The notes under the pieces are model-generated. The model saw only the letters and a program-made list of their open reading frames with translations, was not told the origin of the DNA and searched no databases. The position numbers were made by a program, and so were the translations under genes. DNA of 32,000 nucleotides, taken from an archaeon. Its GTDB lineage: Archaea > Asgardarchaeota > Thorarchaeia > Thorarchaeales > Thorarchaeaceae. This document shows, in pieces, positions 7,815 through 31,998 of this stretch (positions are counted from its first letter, which is position 1; each line of letters begins with the position of its first letter). The DNA lies in assembly GCA_024275415.1 (NCBI GenBank), contig JAJRZD010000051.1, positions 62,074 through 94,073 of the forward strand, read 5' to 3'.

Positions 7815-9449
7815 ATGAGTCAACAACCAGTGATAATATTACGAGAGGACACTGAGCGTACGAGAGGCAGAGATGCCCAACGGAATAACATCATGGCTGC
7901 AGTTGTGATTGCTGAAGCTGTCAAGTCGGCATTAGGTCCCAAGGGTATGGACAAGATGCTCGTAGATAGTTTTGGAGACGTCACTGTCAGTAATGATGGT
8001 GCTACCATCCTGAAAGAGATGGACGTAGCCCACCCAGCAGCCAAAATGGTCATTGAGGTTTCAAAGACCCTTGACGCTGAGGTTGGCGATGGAACCACTA
8101 CAGCTGCCGTACTGACTGGTACTCTGTTGAAAGAGGCAGACACTCTACTTGACCAGAAGATCCACCCAACGACTATAATCAGCGGGTACAGGAAAGCAAC
8201 CGAGAAGGCGTTGAAGGTTATTGACGAAGTTGCAGAAGAGGTTGACCCTTCCAGTCCATCCTTCAAGAAGATCCTAACAGATGTGGCAAAAACCTCGATG
8301 TCGAGCAAATTCGTTTCTGGCTCCAAAGACCAGCTGGCAAAATTGGTAGTTGAGGCAGTCTTGTCCGTCGCAAAAGAGAGGACGGGCGATGAAGACATCA
8401 ACATGGACGACATCCCACGCCAGAAGCAGAAGGGCATGCCTGTTACCAGCACAGAACTCGTGAAAGGGATCGTGTTGGACAAAGAGATCGTCCACCCAGG
8501 AATGCCAAAGAAGATCGAGAAGGCAAAGATTGCTCTCCTAGAGGCTCCAATCGAGATTACAAAGACTGAGTTTGATGCAAAGATTGCTATAACCAACCCA
8601 GCAGCTATGCAACAGTTCCTTGATGAGGAAGAAAGGATGCTTAGAAACCTGACTGACAAGATCATCGAGGCTGGTGCCAACGTTGTGATTGCCCAGAAAG
8701 GTATCGATGACGTAGCCCAACACTTCCTTGCAAAGGCCGGCATTCTGGCGGTTCGAAGGATTAAGAAATCCGATATCGAACGCTTGCACAAAGCGACTGG
8801 TGCTACTATCGTGTCCAAGATTCAGAACCTGACCAGCGATGATCTAGGCGAGGCTGCGATTGTCGAGCAGCGGCAGGTCGGAGAGGACAAGATGCTCTTT
8901 GTAGAGGGAACCCCCAAGTCATCTGTTGTCACAATCCTTGTTCGAGGAGGCACTGACCACGTAGTTGATGAGGTAGACCGTGCATTGAACGATGCACTCT
9001 ACGTAGTCAGAGATGTGCTCATCCATCCAGCAATTACCTACGGAGGTGGGTCACTTGCCAGCGTTATCGCGAAGGAACTCAGGGAATATTCGGCAAAACT
9101 TGAGGGACGTGAGCAGTACGCTGTGAACTCCTATGCGGACGCAATAGAAGTGCTACCAGCAACATTGGCAGAGAATGCTGGCTTGGATCCTATCGATATC
9201 CTCGTTGACTTGAGGTCTGCACATGCTGAGGGTAAGGTCACCTATGGAGTAGACATAGGAAAAGGTAAAGTAGGGGACATGAAGAAGGCAAAGGTTGTAG
9301 AATCAGCCCTTGTCAACAAGCAAATCGTCATGTCCGCAGCCGAGGCAGCACAGATGATCCTCAAGATAGATGATGTCATTAGCTCCAAGAGCTCTGGCGG
9401 TCCGGGCGGCGGAATGCCTGGCGGCGATAGTGACTCTGACGACGAATAG
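7815..9449 (+). CDS. ths: Thermosome subunit (group II chaperonin)
   Basis: LGPKGMDKM, VSNDGATILKEM, EVGDGTTT, VKGIVLDKE, ILVRGG, GGGS, LAENAGLDP, ILKIDDVI and a GGMPGG tail. GGAGGA at 7801-7806 precedes ATG 7815. Confidence 0.97.
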   Translation: MSQQPVIILREDTERTRGRDAQRNNIMAAVVIAEAVKSALGPKGMDKMLVDSFGDVTVSNDGATILKEMDVAHPAAKMVIEVSKTLDAEVGDGTTTAAVLTGTLLKEADTLLDQKIHPTTIISGYRKATEKALKVIDEVAEEVDPSSPSFKKILTDVAKTSMSSKFVSGSKDQLAKLVVEAVLSVAKERTGDEDINMDDIPRQKQKGMPVTSTELVKGIVLDKEIVHPGMPKKIEKAKIALLEAPIEITKTEFDAKIAITNPAAMQQFLDEEERMLRNLTDKIIEAGANVVIAQKGIDDVAQHFLAKAGILAVRRIKKSDIERLHKATGATIVSKIQNLTSDDLGEAAIVEQRQVGEDKMLFVEGTPKSSVVTILVRGGTDHVVDEVDRALNDALYVVRDVLIHPAITYGGGSLASVIAKELREYSAKLEGREQYAVNSYADAIEVLPATLAENAGLDPIDILVDLRSAHAEGKVTYGVDIGKGKVGDMKKAKVVESALVNKQIVMSAAEAAQMILKIDDVISSKSSGGPGGGMPGGDSDSDDE

Positions 9450-9485
9450 AAAGAGTCAAACGTGCTTGAGTAGGTGGACGAACTC

Positions 9486-10166
9486 ATGTCTGAAGACCCC
9501 GAAATCAAACAACCAACTGAAGAGGAAGAAACCCCGGATACACTAACGCCAGCAGAGCTGGTAAACATTCTGACGAACATCCAGGGTGTTGGTCCTAAGA
9601 ACGCTGAGAAGTTAGTAGAGCAAGGATACGATTCCATAAGCAAGGTCGCAGAGGCTGACCCTGAGGAATTAGCTACTGCGATCTCTGGATTCAGCGTGTC
9701 CAAGGCAGAAGGGATTATCGAGAAAGCAAATGCCCTTCTAGAGCTCATCAAAAGTGGGGTCGTCGATGTTACGGGGAAGGTCAAGAAGACAAAGAGAAAG
9801 AAGGCTCCTGAACCAGACCCGGTAGTACACGAGTTGCCACCTGGAGAAGATATCAAGGCAGTGATGGAGAGAGATTCACTTCTGACCGGTCGTGAGCAAG
9901 AAAACGTCGAGATAGGAATCCCTACAGGTCAGAAATGGCTGAGCAAATTCGAAAAGGCAAGAATCATTGGTGCTCGGGCACTTCAGATCTCGATGGGTGC
10001 CCCCATTCTCGTAAACGCCTCGAAAGCTCCATCGGGGCTCTTCGAAATTGCAGAGATGGAGCTTCGCTCGGGGGTACTTCCCATGACGATCAGAAGAACT
10101 CTCCCCACTGGCAAATACTACGACATCCCTCTATCAGTTCTATTGAAGCACACGCGACTGGACTGA
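9486..10166 (+). CDS. rpo6: RNA polymerase subunit Rpo6 (RpoK/RPB6) with an N-terminal tandem helix-hairpin-helix domain and Lys-rich linker
   Basis: C-terminal LSKFEKARIIGARALQISMGAP...IAEMEL...LPMTIRRTLPTG is Rpo6/RPB6. N-terminal LTNIQGVGPKNAEKLVEQGYDSISKVAEADPEELA...ISGFSVSKAEGIIE is an (HhH)2 module. AGGTGG lies upstream of ATG 9486; GTG 9474 is an alternative start. Confidence 0.9.
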   Translation: MSEDPEIKQPTEEEETPDTLTPAELVNILTNIQGVGPKNAEKLVEQGYDSISKVAEADPEELATAISGFSVSKAEGIIEKANALLELIKSGVVDVTGKVKKTKRKKAPEPDPVVHELPPGEDIKAVMERDSLLTGREQENVEIGIPTGQKWLSKFEKARIIGARALQISMGAPILVNASKAPSGLFEIAEMELRSGVLPMTIRRTLPTGKYYDIPLSVLLKHTRLD

Positions 10167-27074: not shown

Positions 27075-28135
27075 TGGTCAATGTGACAATTGATGGGATG
27101 TGGAAGGAATTCTCAGATGGAACCGCAATAGGGCCAATCGATCTTGAAGTCAGAGACGGCGAGTTGATTGTGCTCCTTGGACCCAGCGGGTCGGGAAAGA
27201 CCACGACGCTTCGGATGGTTGCGGGGTTCATTCGCCCGGATCGAGGAAGGCTGTTGTTCGATGATGTCAATGTCATGCATGTCCCACCAAATGAGCGAAA
27301 GATTGGAATGGTTGTCCAATCAGTGGCACTTTTCCCGAACATGGATGTCTTCCAAAACATAGCATTCGCACTTGAAGTGAGAGAATGGCCGCACGAAAAG
27401 GTGGTAAGGAGAGTAGAAGAACTGTCCGACCTAGTTGGGATCCGAAACCTCCTGCATAGAAAAATTACCGAGATCAGCGGTGGCGAAGGGCAACGGGTTG
27501 CATTGGCTAGAGCACTGGCCCACGGGCCTGAGCTGTTGTTGTTGGACGAGCCTCTTTCTGCACTAGATCCCAACCTTAGAGAAAGCCTTCAGATGGAGAT
27601 CCGACGCATCCAGAAAGAGCTGCGGGTCACTACTATTTACGTTACTCACAACCAAGACGAGGCATTCGCGATTGCTGACCGGATCGCTGTCCTGAACGAA
27701 GGAGTCATCAACCAGGTCGGGACACCCTCGGATCTTTACGACCGCCCCTTGAACAGGTTTGTGGCCACCTTTCTTGGAAGAGGAAGCATCCTGGGTGGAG
27801 AAGTGACCAGTTGCGATGACAAGGGGTTCGAGGTCTCATTCGATGGACAAACTATGCACCTCCCAGGATATCAAGAGGTCGGCAATATCATTGAACTCTC
27901 AGTGAAGCCCGAAGACATCACAGTTACAAGGTTCGGTGATGACGGACTTGAAGCCACAGTGGAGTCCATTGTATCTCAGCCCGGACGATATAGGGTACAG
28001 CTGAAGATAGGAAAGCATAGCCTTCACACCTTCATCTCAGCCAACACCCTGCCAGAACAGTTCCGTCCCGGTGAAAGGATCCGCATCACAATTGACCCGA
28101 TGGAAGTTGCCATTCTAGCGGATACGAGTCCCTAG
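27074..28135 (+). CDS. thiQ: ABC transporter ATP-binding protein (ThiQ/PotA-like, with TOBE domain)
   Basis: Walker A GPSGSGKT, signature ISGGEGQRVALARAL, Walker B LLLLDEP and H-loop VTHNQ. Overlaps thiP by 1 nt (TGATG). Confidence 0.92.
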   Translation: MVNVTIDGMWKEFSDGTAIGPIDLEVRDGELIVLLGPSGSGKTTTLRMVAGFIRPDRGRLLFDDVNVMHVPPNERKIGMVVQSVALFPNMDVFQNIAFALEVREWPHEKVVRRVEELSDLVGIRNLLHRKITEISGGEGQRVALARALAHGPELLLLDEPLSALDPNLRESLQMEIRRIQKELRVTTIYVTHNQDEAFAIADRIAVLNEGVINQVGTPSDLYDRPLNRFVATFLGRGSILGGEVTSCDDKGFEVSFDGQTMHLPGYQEVGNIIELSVKPEDITVTRFGDDGLEATVESIVSQPGRYRVQLKIGKHSLHTFISANTLPEQFRPGERIRITIDPMEVAILADTSP

Positions 28136-29901
28136 AGGGGGATAGACGCACCAAAGCACTCCTCCAACTCTCGGAGAACCTTCCTCTTGATTTCCATTAC
28201 ATTGGTACCTTTACATTCTATGACCAGATCTTGAAGAACTCCATTCTTTCGGTCATAGGTCAAAGTCACTGTTGCCTTTTCTATCTCGCTAGCATCGAAC
28301 AGGTAGTGCGTACGGACGACCTCGCGCTTGTCCTGGACTTCTTCATCCACAGAAACTACCACCTTGTCGGCCAAATATCCCTCGATCTTTGCTGGGTCGC
28401 ATCTTATGTTCAGTGATTGCCGGATCATATGTTCTTTCTCAATCCTTCGACCCAGAAAATCCATGGCCTTCTTCAGACCTATAACTATCACTACCCACAG
28501 TATTATTGCACAGAGAAAGAATAGCAGAGGATATTCCAATGAGAGTTGTGCAAGTGGAGTGGTATACTCACCGGTGAAGGCCATGATGATATCGAAGGCA
28601 ATAGTCCCCGATAGGACAAGCTGAATCACATCAAGCACATCACCTGTCCGCTCACTGGCCTTGATGACCTCGCTAGTACTTCGGGTATTGTCACGCAGGG
28701 CACTGTATAGGCGACGCATCTGCTGCTCGATCTGAGTCGATAACAGAGTTTGAAGCCCTTCGACCTCACTCCTGATGCTATTCAGAACCAAGTCTATGTC
28801 GCGGATGCGGTTGAGTAGTGCCATGAAGCCATCGTCTATCGCAACTAGTGAGAGAAGGTCTGAGTCAATACTATCCTTTGATTTGCTCCATTGTTCATTT
28901 ATCAGACCAAAACCGCGATCCAGATAACCCCCTGTTGAATTCAGGATTGTATAATTAGCAGTTGCCTCGGTCAAGAGATTCTGGGCTTTAGTAATTACCG
29001 AGTAGTCGCCTTCTGTTGACCGCTCAATGAGGTTTCTGGCTTCATTCAACTCATCATTCAGAAGGGATATCCTGTTGAACAGTGCATCAACGAATAGCTC
29101 TGCGCTTCTAAGTAAGCAGTAGTAAATGACGAGGGATTCGTATTTCCGCCAATCAGGAGAAACAAGGAGTATCCCACCCTCGCCAATCATGATAAGGGTT
29201 CTATCTGTCGAAACCTCCTGCACGCTTCGGATATCATCCAGCACCTGCTCCAACTCGTTCTGGTAATCCTCGCCATCAAGGTATAACGAGACCTCGTCAA
29301 ACGCTGGAGAGATTGAGGAGGCGATGAGCCCTACGAATTTGTATCTATTGTTGGCGGTTCCTTTGAAGACACAGTCCAAGATGCTTCGTTGATGATGTGT
29401 CAACAGAGTATCTATGAGCAGCGACGAGTCATACATGATATCTGGGATTACTCGTGAGATGAGGTCTAGAGAAGCAGTTGGGTCTTTGCCAATCTCTTTC
29501 CCTGTAATGTGTGTGATGCGGCATCCATAGATCATGTTCCCCTCGTGGCTGAGGCGCATCCCTATCATCTCGTCCTGCACAATCGTATCTTCAGGATCCT
29601 GCATTGTTGCCTCGCATTGTATATACTCGGATGGCTTGTACTCGATGATTCGAACAGCACTACACTTCTTTTCGGATTGGAAAATTGCACGCTCCGGCCA
29701 GCTGTCCATCAACATCGTTACGAATTTACCTTGCATGGATTTCTTGGCCATCAGTTTCTGATTGATAGACTCCAAGCTGTTCCGGTCACAGGGGATATAC
29801 TCACTGAGGATCAACCTCACATCGCCCAGCTTGACGAATTCCTCCAGCTCATCTTTGATCTGACTTTTTGATGTCACTCTTGATATCCTCCTTTTATTCA
29901 A
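28132..29901 (-). CDS. Uncharacterised membrane protein with CorA-like architecture (soluble N-domain, long coiled coil, two transmembrane helices, extra C-domain)
   Basis: Long heptad helices (FNRISLLNDELNEARNLIE; LNSIRSEVEGLQTLL...RRLYSAL) lead into two hydrophobic helices. TGEY occupies the position where CorA has GMN. TTG start. Confidence 0.55.
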   Translation of the reverse strand: MNKRRISRVTSKSQIKDELEEFVKLGDVRLILSEYIPCDRNSLESINQKLMAKKSMQGKFVTMLMDSWPERAIFQSEKKCSAVRIIEYKPSEYIQCEATMQDPEDTIVQDEMIGMRLSHEGNMIYGCRITHITGKEIGKDPTASLDLISRVIPDIMYDSSLLIDTLLTHHQRSILDCVFKGTANNRYKFVGLIASSISPAFDEVSLYLDGEDYQNELEQVLDDIRSVQEVSTDRTLIMIGEGGILLVSPDWRKYESLVIYYCLLRSAELFVDALFNRISLLNDELNEARNLIERSTEGDYSVITKAQNLLTEATANYTILNSTGGYLDRGFGLINEQWSKSKDSIDSDLLSLVAIDDGFMALLNRIRDIDLVLNSIRSEVEGLQTLLSTQIEQQMRRLYSALRDNTRSTSEVIKASERTGDVLDVIQLVLSGTIAFDIIMAFTGEYTTPLAQLSLEYPLLFFLCAIILWVVIVIGLKKAMDFLGRRIEKEHMIRQSLNIRCDPAKIEGYLADKVVVSVDEEVQDKREVVRTHYLFDASEIEKATVTLTYDRKNGVLQDLVIECKGTNVMEIKRKVLRELEECFGASIPL

Positions 29902-30433
29902 GGGATGGAAAATACGGCTCGGTCAAATAACTGACATCTTCGATGAAGCCCATTGAGGTTTCTAGTTTGAACGTGCAGGTCGAACAAACAAAAGAGATGT
30001 CATCAGGGGAAAACAGTACTTCGTAGTTGCATCCACACTCGTGCTGTATCAGAGAGTAAACCTCATCCTTTAGTTCTGGAGTAAGTGAAGAAAGAACCTC
30101 TCCTACCAGAACAGTAGGTTTGTAGGCGGTCATGTACCCATACTGAGATGTGCTGAGGCGTAAGATTGCAATCAATTGGAGATTGATGAGATCCTCGATG
30201 TCGTCCTTCCCTTCCCGACTAATATTGAGCCACCTGCGAGTGCCATCAAGCATTGGAACACTGGTAGGGCTGTAGTCATAGCTCTTGAACACGCCCTTGA
30301 CAATGCCTTCATGGATTATAGCCAACAAAGGGAGCTCCTTGATCCAGAGGGGATTGTCCTCATCATTTGTCTGAGTGTATTCGGATATGATGAAAAGTAG
30401 TTTCAGCATATCCTCAGTGAGTCCATGAAACAT
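29894..30433 (-). CDS. Uncharacterised winged-helix-like protein with a C-terminal Zn-ribbon-like Cys motif
   Basis: KLLFII...YDYSP...GKDDIEDLINLQLI...MTAYKPT, and C-terminal ECGC-x15-CSTC. GGAGG precedes the start. Overlaps the downstream gene by 8 nt. Confidence 0.6.
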   Translation of the reverse strand: MFHGLTEDMLKLLFIISEYTQTNDEDNPLWIKELPLLAIIHEGIVKGVFKSYDYSPTSVPMLDGTRRWLNISREGKDDIEDLINLQLIAILRLSTSQYGYMTAYKPTVLVGEVLSSLTPELKDEVYSLIQHECGCNYEVLFSPDDISFVCSTCTFKLETSMGFIEDVSYLTEPYFPSLE

Positions 30434-30653: not shown

Positions 30654-31598
30654 ATGGTTATCGGGTACGAGGTTTCCGAGGACGGAACTTTACAAGAGGT
30701 AGAATTGACGAAGGAGAGCCTTGATTCTACAAAGGTTGTTTGCGTGGTTGATGACGAAACAAAGAGCATCTACCTTTGGAAAGGGATTCAGGCGGGGGTC
30801 AGGAAGAAATTCATTGGAGCCAGAGTGGCTACTAATCTCAGAACCGAGTATGGTTTTCATTTCAAGGTGCGCTCACTGGATGAAGGTGAAGAACCCCCAA
30901 CATTCTTCACGGCTTTAGACGGTACAACTGCAGCGACTAAAGTGATAAAGCCAGGAGAACCAAGGGCGCCTCCAAAGCCACCGAAAGTAAGTGCATCTGC
31001 TACTCCAGCTGCAGAAACAAAGCACGTCGAACCTGCAGCGGTCAAACCTCCACCGCCGAGGAGAGAAACCGGTACTACAGCACCACCCCCCAAACCCAAG
31101 ACTACAATGCCTCCCCCAAAGCCTCCTGTAACGAAAGCGGTTACGAAAACACCTCCTCAAGATGCGACTGTTTCTACATCCATGGTTTCACAAAGTGTCA
31201 TTGATGAGATGATTGCAGAACTTGAGAACGAGTCACCTCCCGAAGGGTACCGCCGAGAACTCCTGATCGTCTACAACGAGATATACACTGTTGCAGAACA
31301 TAAGATATCAGTATTCGGACAGGAAAAGATCGAACACCGGTTTGAGAAGGTGAAAGACCCGCCGGAGGGAACGTTCATGGCAGAAGGGTTCATCCCACGA
31401 GTGATTGTGAAAGACGGTAGGGTCTTAGGAATAGAGCTTCTCAAAGGAACGCCTGATGCTATTCTCAGTCCCATCAAGACAGAGATGAAGGAACGGCTAG
31501 GAGACCTCATAAGCTTCTTCAAATCTGAAGTAGAAGAAGCAGAGAGCAAAGCAGACAAAAAGAAGTCTGCCTCGAAGCGGAAATTGGTTGCAAAATAG
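30654..31598 (+). CDS. Gelsolin-domain protein (single gelsolin repeat, Pro-rich linker, uncharacterised C-terminal domain; 1DGelX-like)
   Basis: SLDSTKVVCVVDDETKSIYLWKG...RKKFIGARVATNL...VRSLDEGEEPPTFFTAL matches the gelsolin/villin repeat consensus. An ~85-aa Pro/Thr/Lys linker, a globular domain and a Lys-rich tail follow. Confidence 0.85.
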   Translation: MVIGYEVSEDGTLQEVELTKESLDSTKVVCVVDDETKSIYLWKGIQAGVRKKFIGARVATNLRTEYGFHFKVRSLDEGEEPPTFFTALDGTTAATKVIKPGEPRAPPKPPKVSASATPAAETKHVEPAAVKPPPPRRETGTTAPPPKPKTTMPPPKPPVTKAVTKTPPQDATVSTSMVSQSVIDEMIAELENESPPEGYRRELLIVYNEIYTVAEHKISVFGQEKIEHRFEKVKDPPEGTFMAEGFIPRVIVKDGRVLGIELLKGTPDAILSPIKTEMKERLGDLISFFKSEVEEAESKADKKKSASKRKLVAK

Positions 31599-31611
31599 GA
31601 GGAAACATTGA

Positions 31612-31998
31612 ATGTCCACCATCGATCCAGAAAAAGAAAGGGAACTCGTTGAGCTCCTTATGGGACTAACAAACTATGCCGACCTTGATGCCATTGCTGT
31701 TGTGAGCAAGCAAGGAGTCAAGCTTGCATACTTTGCCACTGAAGAGTCAGATGCCGATCCCGACTTGATGGCTGCCGTGAGTGCTGCGCTTCTTGTACAA
31801 GGTGAGATGGCAGCAGAGAAACTTTACCTGAACGAACTCTACGAAGTGATTGTGAGGGGCAAAGAAGGATTCGTCGTACTTTCCCATGCAGGCGACTTTC
31901 TGATCATGGGTTCAGCAAGAGACCTCACCTCTATGGGACTTGCCGTCACCCAGATGAGAAAATACGCCATGGAGATTGGCAAGCTCCTGAGTAAATGA
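31612..31998 (+). CDS. Roadblock/LC7 (MglB-like) domain protein
   Basis: LDAIAVVSKQGVKLA, LMAAVSAALL...EMAAEKL...LYEVIVRGKEGFVVLSHAG and MGLAVTQMR. AGGAGG overlaps the gelsolin stop codon, 13 nt before the ATG. Confidence 0.9.
   Translation: MSTIDPEKERELVELLMGLTNYADLDAIAVVSKQGVKLAYFATEESDADPDLMAAVSAALLVQGEMAAEKLYLNELYEVIVRGKEGFVVLSHAGDFLIMGSARDLTSMGLAVTQMRKYAMEIGKLLSK

Follow-up and report, generated by a model that had tools for sequence, protein, structure and literature searches.

The 32,000-nucleotide (nt) window analyzed here (positions 62,074 to 94,073 of the forward strand of contig JAJRZD010000051.1, assembly GCA_024275415.1, from an archaeon of the Thorarchaeaceae) includes a gene, hereafter GelX, whose product combines an N-terminal gelsolin domain, a proline-rich linker, a globular C-terminal domain (domain X), and a basic tail. 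Overall, this gene is best explained, and quite probably so, as the Thorarchaeota (Thor) orthologue of 1DGelX, a modular actin regulator that acts independently of calcium; its identity as 1DGelX and its function on actin, taken jointly, can be held with high confidence. The four-part organization had been reported in a preliminary description of the window made from the sequence, and is confirmed by our analysis: the motifs APPKPPK, KPPPPRR, PPPKPK, and PPPKPP and the basic tail were each located in the translated open reading frame (ORF), and the earlier estimate of the linker (~85 amino acids [aa], 30925-31180) is close to the segment delimited here (Table 1).

Identification of the 1DGelX orthologue

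Akil et al. (2020, PNAS) defined three gelsolin architectures in Thor, namely ProGel, 2DGel, and 1DGelX, the last consisting of one gelsolin domain and an unknown domain X and characterized from SMTZ1-83 (PMC7444086). In a search of 5.8 billion proteins, the GelX product has 318 relatives that share 65-75% identity over the full length, and the labelled ones are nearly all from Thorarchaeota. Its identity to KXH72031.1 of SMTZ1-83 (member P0047 of our family set) is 70% over 94% of the query, and we identify KXH72031.1 here, based on its sequence, as most likely the 1DGelX protein of Akil et al. The gelsolin domain of KXH72031.1 is identical to that of ProGel (7C2F_B) at 31/88 positions, counted from the alignment, or 35%, which is the published figure for 1DGelX (PMC7444086). 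Further, in our sample of 151 Asgard genomes, each genome of the Thor family has a single gene encoding domain X. Given the 70% identity, the single copy, and the 35% match to ProGel, the gene is therefore an orthologue of the characterized 1DGelX. The same genome contains four genes with a gelsolin domain (this gene, two ProGel-like genes, and one 2DGel), among which GelX is the only ORF with an extension, and the gelsolin-domain and X-domain profiles both match its product, in that order. In an alignment of 28 orthologues, the near-invariant regions are residues 1-100 and about 186-292, separated by a variable linker, and the K-L-V-A-K end is fixed.

The characterized 1DGelX binds rabbit actin with a dissociation constant (Kd) of 7.7 uM; it binds G-actin, nucleates at substoichiometric levels, sequesters actin at 1:1, and severs filaments, and its severing and nucleation are calcium-independent (PMC7444086). 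As this orthologue binds, severs, and nucleates actin, the preliminary description was right in calling the protein a modular actin regulator. In cells, 1DGelX fused to green fluorescent protein (GFP) showed weak filament association and localized to the endoplasmic reticulum (ER) and nuclear envelope (PMC7444086). In the same study, crystallization of 1DGelX failed, domain X could not be produced, an I-TASSER model gave a coiled coil, and the proline motifs are unmentioned in the main text (PMC7444086). Earlier publications already cover this class of protein, what it does to actin, and the "gelsolin plus X" architecture, and the present copy is a further member. It shares with SMTZ1-83 1DGelX the architecture, the single-copy family, the near-invariant gelsolin domain, domain X, and the KLVAK end, but comes from another species, and its linker has a different sequence with one PPPP run (in KPPPPRR). 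What is new here is that motif conservation is quantified, that SH3/WW-type docking is all but excluded, and that a proline-binding profilin of the host is identified. In addition, domain X is confidently modeled as a fold other than a coiled coil with a putative functional loop, and the pairing with a Roadblock gene is confirmed.

The assignment of the N-terminal domain is based on profile searches. The profile of the 1DGelX family matched chain B of Thor ProGel (7C2F) among PDB sequences with an expect value (E) of 2.4e-16, and the 2DGel chains of Thor, Heimdall, and Loki (7C2H, 7C2G, 7WHF, 7WHG) with E 7e-9 to 1e-4, the 7C2-series chains being at 7e-9 and 3e-7. A search with the SMTZ1-83 orthologue also reached villin and gelsolin (E 1e-6 to 1e-5). 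These matches identify the N-terminal domain as a gelsolin domain, as the preliminary description had it, and its residues 1-100 are almost invariant in the 28-orthologue alignment. Two results speak against this assignment. The Pfam Gelsolin model (PF00626) gave no match above the gathering score for this protein, and the predicted local distance difference test (pLDDT) score was 26-56 over residues 1-100 in a full-length AlphaFold2 (AF2) run with a shallow 28-sequence alignment; a fold search with this full-length model returned only single-helix matches. The former result is a sensitivity limit of a model built mainly on eukaryotic repeats; P0182, a distant member of the family, passes PF00626 with 26.2 bits against a cut-off of 21.

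Proposed mode of action

The protein and the Thor ProGel and 2DGel (7C2F, 7C2G, 7C2H) have homologous gelsolin domains, with about 35% identity to ProGel, but unlike the protein studied here, ProGel and 2DGel have no linker, domain X, or basic tail. The affinity of ProGel for actin is about 44-fold lower than that of 1DGelX, and ProGel does not sever; 2DGel is calcium-dependent (PMC7444086). 1DGelX is the most active minimal Asgard gelsolin. Because of this contrast with ProGel, and because domain X is almost always paired with a gelsolin domain, we propose that the part following the gelsolin domain, i.e., domain X and the tail, would add the second contact required by a lone gelsolin domain for severing and nucleation. 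This contact could be with the side of the filament, with a further actin subunit, or with an anionic surface, and the conserved domain X loop and the basic tail are candidates for making it. The linker would act as a disordered tether between the gelsolin domain and domain X. In Thor, its motifs would most plausibly serve as weak multivalent sites for the proline-binding profilin of the host, or they may extend the actin interface beside the gelsolin domain.

The proline-rich linker

We compared motif counts in the linkers of 111 Thor orthologues with those in composition-preserving shuffles. The linkers are 56-79 aa long and consist of 34% Pro, 17% Thr, 17% Ala, and 10% Lys, and pLDDT is below 50 over the linker in the full-length AF2 model. 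PPP is present in all 111 linkers and PPP[KR]P in 81% of them; the latter motif occurs 1.57 times per linker, compared with 0.11 times in shuffles (a 14-fold excess), and PP[KR]PP occurs 1.17 times, compared with 0.10. The longest proline run is three residues in 98/111 linkers and four in the other 13, and none contains PPPPP. In the 28-orthologue alignment, K99, P100, G101, P106, P109, and P110 are invariant, and P105, P145, P146, P148, and P155 are at least 90% conserved, which makes eight linker prolines invariant or at least 90% conserved in a linker that is otherwise variable around them. The most conserved part is the junction with the gelsolin domain, (K/R)V(L/I)KPGExAPPPxPPK, and PPx(1-2)PP falls inside the first 16 linker residues of 108/111 orthologues. 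There is no nucleotide tandem repeat beneath the linker, hence the motifs are not a product of slippage. Within Thorarchaeota, then, the PPPKP motifs are both enriched and positionally conserved among orthologues, which is the reverse of the unconserved motif content that the preliminary description had named as evidence against docking. The three or four PPP(K/R)P(P) motifs of the Thor linker appear to be under selection, and a docking role of the linker is plausible.

Beyond Thor, linkers of the family differ widely in length (14-248 aa) and in proline content (3-37%). Although lineage names of family members rest on few labelled proteins, proline makes up 9-13% of the linker in Odinarchaeum (P0126, WEU39881.1; loci of family f3), 10% in a copy of Heimdallarchaeota AB_125, 30% in a Helarchaeota copy, and 9-13% in family f9, which has large genomes with many paralogues and conserved linker motifs of its own (GPLYTGE and HPLRxKxIF). 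Given the range of 3-37%, proline richness is therefore lineage-specific and not a defining feature of 1DGelX. The proline-poor linkers of f9 and f24 (loci L044, L054, L056) keep GPLYTGE and HPLRxKxIF...PRPAEGM, and that of f5 (loci L053, L060) keeps AKMGAPGNRPxPxILxAL. The recurrence of such lineage-specific conserved peptides suggests that linkers in this family may generally carry short linear motifs. A match of the linker to BimA (NCBIfam, 19 bits against a cut-off of 600) and Pfam matches to Ku_C and DUF7904 are compositional or sub-threshold, and were set aside.

A proline-binding profilin in the host

The Pfam Profilin model had no match in the host genome, even at E 10. A tandem-paralogue screen followed by PDB matches identified a tandem pair of profilin genes in this genome (G000:C7:9050-9427 and 9516-9857), the first of which matches thorProfilin 7PBH with E 1.8e-64 and the second with E 2.3e-18. 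thorProfilin binds the VASP peptide PPPAPPLPAAQ with a Kd of 0.2-0.5 mM by nuclear magnetic resonance, with or without its N-terminal extension, and the profilins of Loki and Odin show no polyproline binding (PMC8410842). The proline-rich Thor linkers and the proline-poor Odinarchaeum linker fit this pattern, although these are very few and non-independent points; the proline-poor f9 linkers would also fit it if f9 corresponds to Lokiarchaeia. We infer that profilin is the only plausible eukaryote-type reader of the motifs present in the host, and that its affinity for a single motif would be weak, to which three or four motifs might add avidity.

An in-frame stop codon lies three codons upstream of the ATG of the first profilin gene (pair 9050-9857, L062:250-1054), so the host profilin cannot carry the N-terminal extension of about 19 residues present in the 7PBH construct. 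This lack of the extension bears on the annotation caveat of PMC8410842.

Domain X and the basic tail

When 1.84 billion representatives were searched with a domain X profile, 114 clusters at 50% identity were obtained. Nearly all near-full-length clusters (about 250 aa or more) are 270-320 aa long and consist of an N-terminal gelsolin domain, a linker, and domain X; many of the shorter ones are without a gelsolin match and may be fragments. Domain X is present in 131 of the 151 Asgard genomes, in 70 of the 72 high-quality ones, and in 22 of the 27 families; the copy number is one in the Thor family and reaches six in a different family.

The AF2 model of domain X, built with an 89-sequence alignment, has a mean pLDDT of 94.4. 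It consists of a helix (residues 180-191), five strands (199-206, 209-220, 223-232, 247-253, and 256-265) with a 14-residue loop between strands 3 and 4, and a long helix from residue 267. Fold prediction, suggested earlier as a check on the C-terminal part, accordingly upholds the globular domain, with its five-stranded sheet preceded by one helix and followed by a long one. The loop carries the signature PEGxFxAExYxPR, with G239 and R249 nearly invariant family-wide; given this signature and these two residues, the loop is the obvious candidate for a binding site. In the C-terminal helix, the first half is amphipathic and invariant, the second half is acidic and variable, and residues 267-292 are nearly invariant.

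No match to the domain X profile was found in Pfam or among PDB sequences, and the best Foldseek match of the model in the PDB had an E of 0.35. In the ESM Atlas, the model matched Asgard clusters together with Cache/HAMP sensors at a template modeling (TM) score of about 0.5, and a language-model atlas search returned only unnamed Asgard clusters (0.79). The long helix may have masked fold matches of the model. Judging from the model, domain X has a generic "helix-sheet-helix" look with no demonstrable relative, and no fold assignment is justified. It is predicted to be a compact, Asgard-specific alpha/beta domain in which only the C-terminal extension is a long helix, in contrast to the coiled coil published for 1DGelX. 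Assignment as a Roadblock domain was considered and rejected, with an hhalign probability of 0.2% against the neighboring Roadblock family.

Several other features of this domain were observed. The closest shape in the Atlas (TM 0.55 over 97 residues, root mean square deviation 2.8) belongs to an Asgard-only cluster of 387-aa proteins, 38-54% of which contain Rho_N, SAP, or HeH motifs, and an X-like domain may also be present outside the gelsolin context. Two segments of domain X start with PPEG: strand 1 is preceded by PPEGYRRE and strand 4 by DPPEGTFMAEGFIPR. They may be remnants of a beta-hairpin unit that was duplicated within the domain. In P0182 (430 aa), a short linker joins the gelsolin domain to domain X, after which come about 230 residues of coiled coil with weak Pfam matches to Fez1, crescentin rod, and ATG16; this variant points to oligomerization as one possible route of extension in the family.

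The last six residues are KKLVAK in 73/120 and RKLVAK in 40/120 Thor orthologues (113/120 together), and the last 16 aa have a mean net charge of about +7. Lysine-rich ends are also present in several other lineages; elsewhere the protein ends directly after the last strand, or with FKIKYQK, DLTKLGI, or MFEIEIG. Possible targets of the polybasic tail are anionic membranes or the acidic F-actin surface, and the published ER and nuclear-envelope localization of GFP-1DGelX leans towards membranes.

Pairing with a Roadblock gene

The gene immediately downstream of GelX encodes a Roadblock/LC7 protein, which also matched the Roadblock chains 9JUE and 7F8M in the PDB. It begins 13 nt after the GelX stop codon, which is overlapped by a GGAGG site, and no terminator-like site was found on the + strand between the two genes, which are probably co-transcribed. 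Other Thor contigs also keep the pair, including those that have different genes further downstream. Based on the coordinates of matches to domain X and to Roadblock orthologues in the same 151 Asgard genomes, Roadblock is immediately downstream of GelX in families f1, f2, f3 (Odinarchaeum), f9, f10, f12, f15, f21, and f24, or roughly 80 genomes, and both genes are present but apart in f5, f6, f13, f16, f18, f19, and f22. The two genes occur together in 128 genomes, domain X alone in three, Roadblock alone in four, and neither in 16, counts that are inflated by relatedness. The pairing is clearly old, and the literature searched contains no mention of it. Judging from gene order, the Roadblock protein is a probable partner or regulator of GelX. 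Twelve genomes in f17 and f20, which are 66-91% complete, have neither a domain X gene nor a Roadblock orthologue, which suggests a joint loss of the two.

Alternative explanations

The preliminary description read the linker as a series of repeated docking motifs, with a plain spacer as the alternative. The motifs could dock SH3, WW, or EVH1 domains in the eukaryotic manner known from the WASP, Abp1, and Ena/VASP networks, and PxxPx[KR] is indeed present in 80% of the Thor linkers. However, PxxP-type motifs are at the frequency expected from shuffles (0.98 per linker compared with 0.92 for the class II SH3 consensus, 0.88 compared with 0.91 for class I), none of the 111 linkers contains PPxY or [FWYL]PPPP, and in the 92.9%-complete host genome Pfam SH3_1 had no match and Pfam WW a single weak one below the cut-off (E 0.66), although these models may miss divergent archaeal forms; we consider such docking extremely improbable. 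What stands of the earlier reading is the conservation and enrichment of PPP(K/R)P(P) and the presence of a profilin in the host; its SH3/WW side did not hold up, and the short proline runs and the family-wide spread in proline content tell against docking as well. Alternatively, the junction may be part of the actin interface, similar to the WH2-like LRRV through which 2DGel contacts actin directly after its first domain, as in gelsolin G1. The junction is the most conserved part of the linker, abuts the gelsolin domain, and is present in 108/111 orthologues, but it resembles WH2 only loosely and would leave the distal PPPKP motifs unexplained, and this interpretation seems unlikely. A stronger contender is that the linker is a plain extended spacer in which the PPPKP motifs reflect a stiff polyproline-II composition without a binding partner. 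Several points favor the spacer and weigh against docking: most columns of the Thor linkers are unconserved; a composition rich in Pro, Thr, and Ala is also typical of inert extended spacers; proline runs never exceed four, and typical high-affinity ligands of profilin have longer ones; and, because linker length and proline content vary so widely across the family, the proline motifs are dispensable for the core function. Further, related genomes make conservation and co-occurrence counts overstate the independent support, and the measured affinity of thorProfilin for proline peptides is weak (PMC8410842). The spacer does not readily account for the excess of PPP[KR]P over composition-matched shuffles, for the eight prolines that are kept while their neighbors drift, or for the short motifs kept by the f9 and f24 linkers, which suggest linear motifs. 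Weighing both sides, we see the chances that the motifs are functional as evenly balanced, and give the plain spacer a chance only a little short of even. That profilin in particular is their reader remains a tentative and somewhat unlikely proposal, and more doubtful still is a formin/VASP-like logic in which the motifs would collect profilin-actin, and domain X and Roadblock would tie severing and nucleation to a GTPase-type switch.

Another explanation starts from the gene pair itself: GelX and Roadblock may form a regulatory module for a small GTPase, with the gelsolin domain acting as in Sec23 and severing being an in vitro side activity with rabbit actin. Such a module would be consistent with the adjacency kept in nine families and the co-occurrence of the two genes, with the role of Roadblock dimers as GTPase platforms (PMC10933270), with the contribution of the gelsolin-like domain of Sec23 to the GTPase-activating activity on Sar1 (PMC11914678), and with the weak association of GFP-1DGelX with filaments in cells (PMC7444086). 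On the other hand, there is no GTPase gene in the GelX-Roadblock operon in the Thor contigs read, the solved structures nearest to 1DGelX in sequence are those of Asgard gelsolins bound to actin, with ProGel first, 1DGelX acts robustly on actin (PMC7444086), and the host genome encodes actin (G000:C73:101853-102956), profilins, ProGel, and 2DGel. We therefore regard it as highly unlikely that the pair serves a GTPase rather than actin.

Comparison with known systems

In eukaryotes, formin FH1, Ena/VASP, and WASP are proline-rich recruiters of profilin, and Abp1/drebrin combines an ADF-H domain with a proline-rich region and a small C-terminal domain. The protein studied here resembles these regulators in having an ADF/gelsolin-type domain followed by a disordered proline-rich region and a small C-terminal domain, and in the presence of a proline-binding profilin in the host, but homology is limited to the gelsolin domain. 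Compared with the FH1/VASP type, in which proline runs are typically five or more, it has runs of three to four and no PPPPP or GPPPPP-type motif; its domain X is not an SH3 domain, and no SH3, WW, or EVH1 reader was found. A Roadblock/MglB-type platform is coupled to an actin-like cytoskeleton in Myxococcus, where MglA-MglB acts with MreB. The GelX operon is similar in that a Roadblock-fold gene lies beside a cytoskeletal regulator, but differs in the lack of a GTPase gene. Roadblock dimers have been described in Asgard archaea (PMC10933270).

The motif set, the domain X loop, the host profilin, and the Roadblock neighbor make the mechanism of 1DGelX directly testable. If profilin docks on the linker, proline-guided recruitment of profilin, as in the actin assembly factors of eukaryotes, would already be in use in Asgard archaea, and if the formin/VASP-like logic holds, both the recruitment of profilin through proline motifs and the control of actin by GTPases would predate eukaryotes. 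If docking fails, the linker would be an ordinary tether on a known protein. Nothing found so far would surprise a specialist.

Features of the gene and its surroundings

The positions of the features discussed above are listed in Table 1.

Table 1. Features of the GelX gene and its downstream neighbor, in nucleotide positions of the window.
Feature	Position (nt)	Strand	Residues	Basis or remark
1DGelX orthologue ORF	30654..31598	+	314 aa plus stop codon	ATG start, open frame
Gelsolin/cofilin-type domain	30654..30953	+	1-100	Family profile match to 7C2F_B
YLWKG signature within gelsolin domain	30771-30785	+	40-44	
Conserved junction (K/R)V(L/I)KPGExAPPPxPPK, includes Pro motif 1	30939..30986	+		Alignment conservation
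Disordered Pro/Thr/Ala/Lys-rich linker	30954..31187	+	101-178 (78 aa, 22 Pro)	
APPKPPK (Pro motif 1)	30966-30986	+	105-111	
KPPPPRR	31044-31064	+	131-137	
PPPKPK	31083-31100	+	144-149	
PPPKPP	31110-31127	+	153-158	
Predicted domain X core (N-terminal helix and five antiparallel strands)	31188..31451	+	179-266	AF2 model
Domain X signature PxGYxRE	31236-31259	+		
Domain X loop signature PEGxFxAExYxPR	31356-31400	+		
Predicted long C-terminal helix	31452..31553	+	267-300	AF2 models
Polybasic tail ending KLVAK	31554..31595	+	301-314	
Terminal KKKSASKRKLVAK	31557-31595	+	302-314	
Stop codon TAG overlapping GGAGG ribosome-binding site	31596..31611	+		Read from sequence; 13 nt to next start
Roadblock/LC7 gene	31612..31998	+	128 aa	Pfam Robl_LC7, E 1.1e-11

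Upstream of GelX, and divergent from it, is a pair of genes on the - strand (28132-30433) that encode proteins of 179 aa and 589 aa, overlap by 8 nt, and have no significant match in Pfam or NCBIfam. In other Thor contigs, this place between thiBPQ and GelX is taken by one unannotated gene of 369-390 aa.

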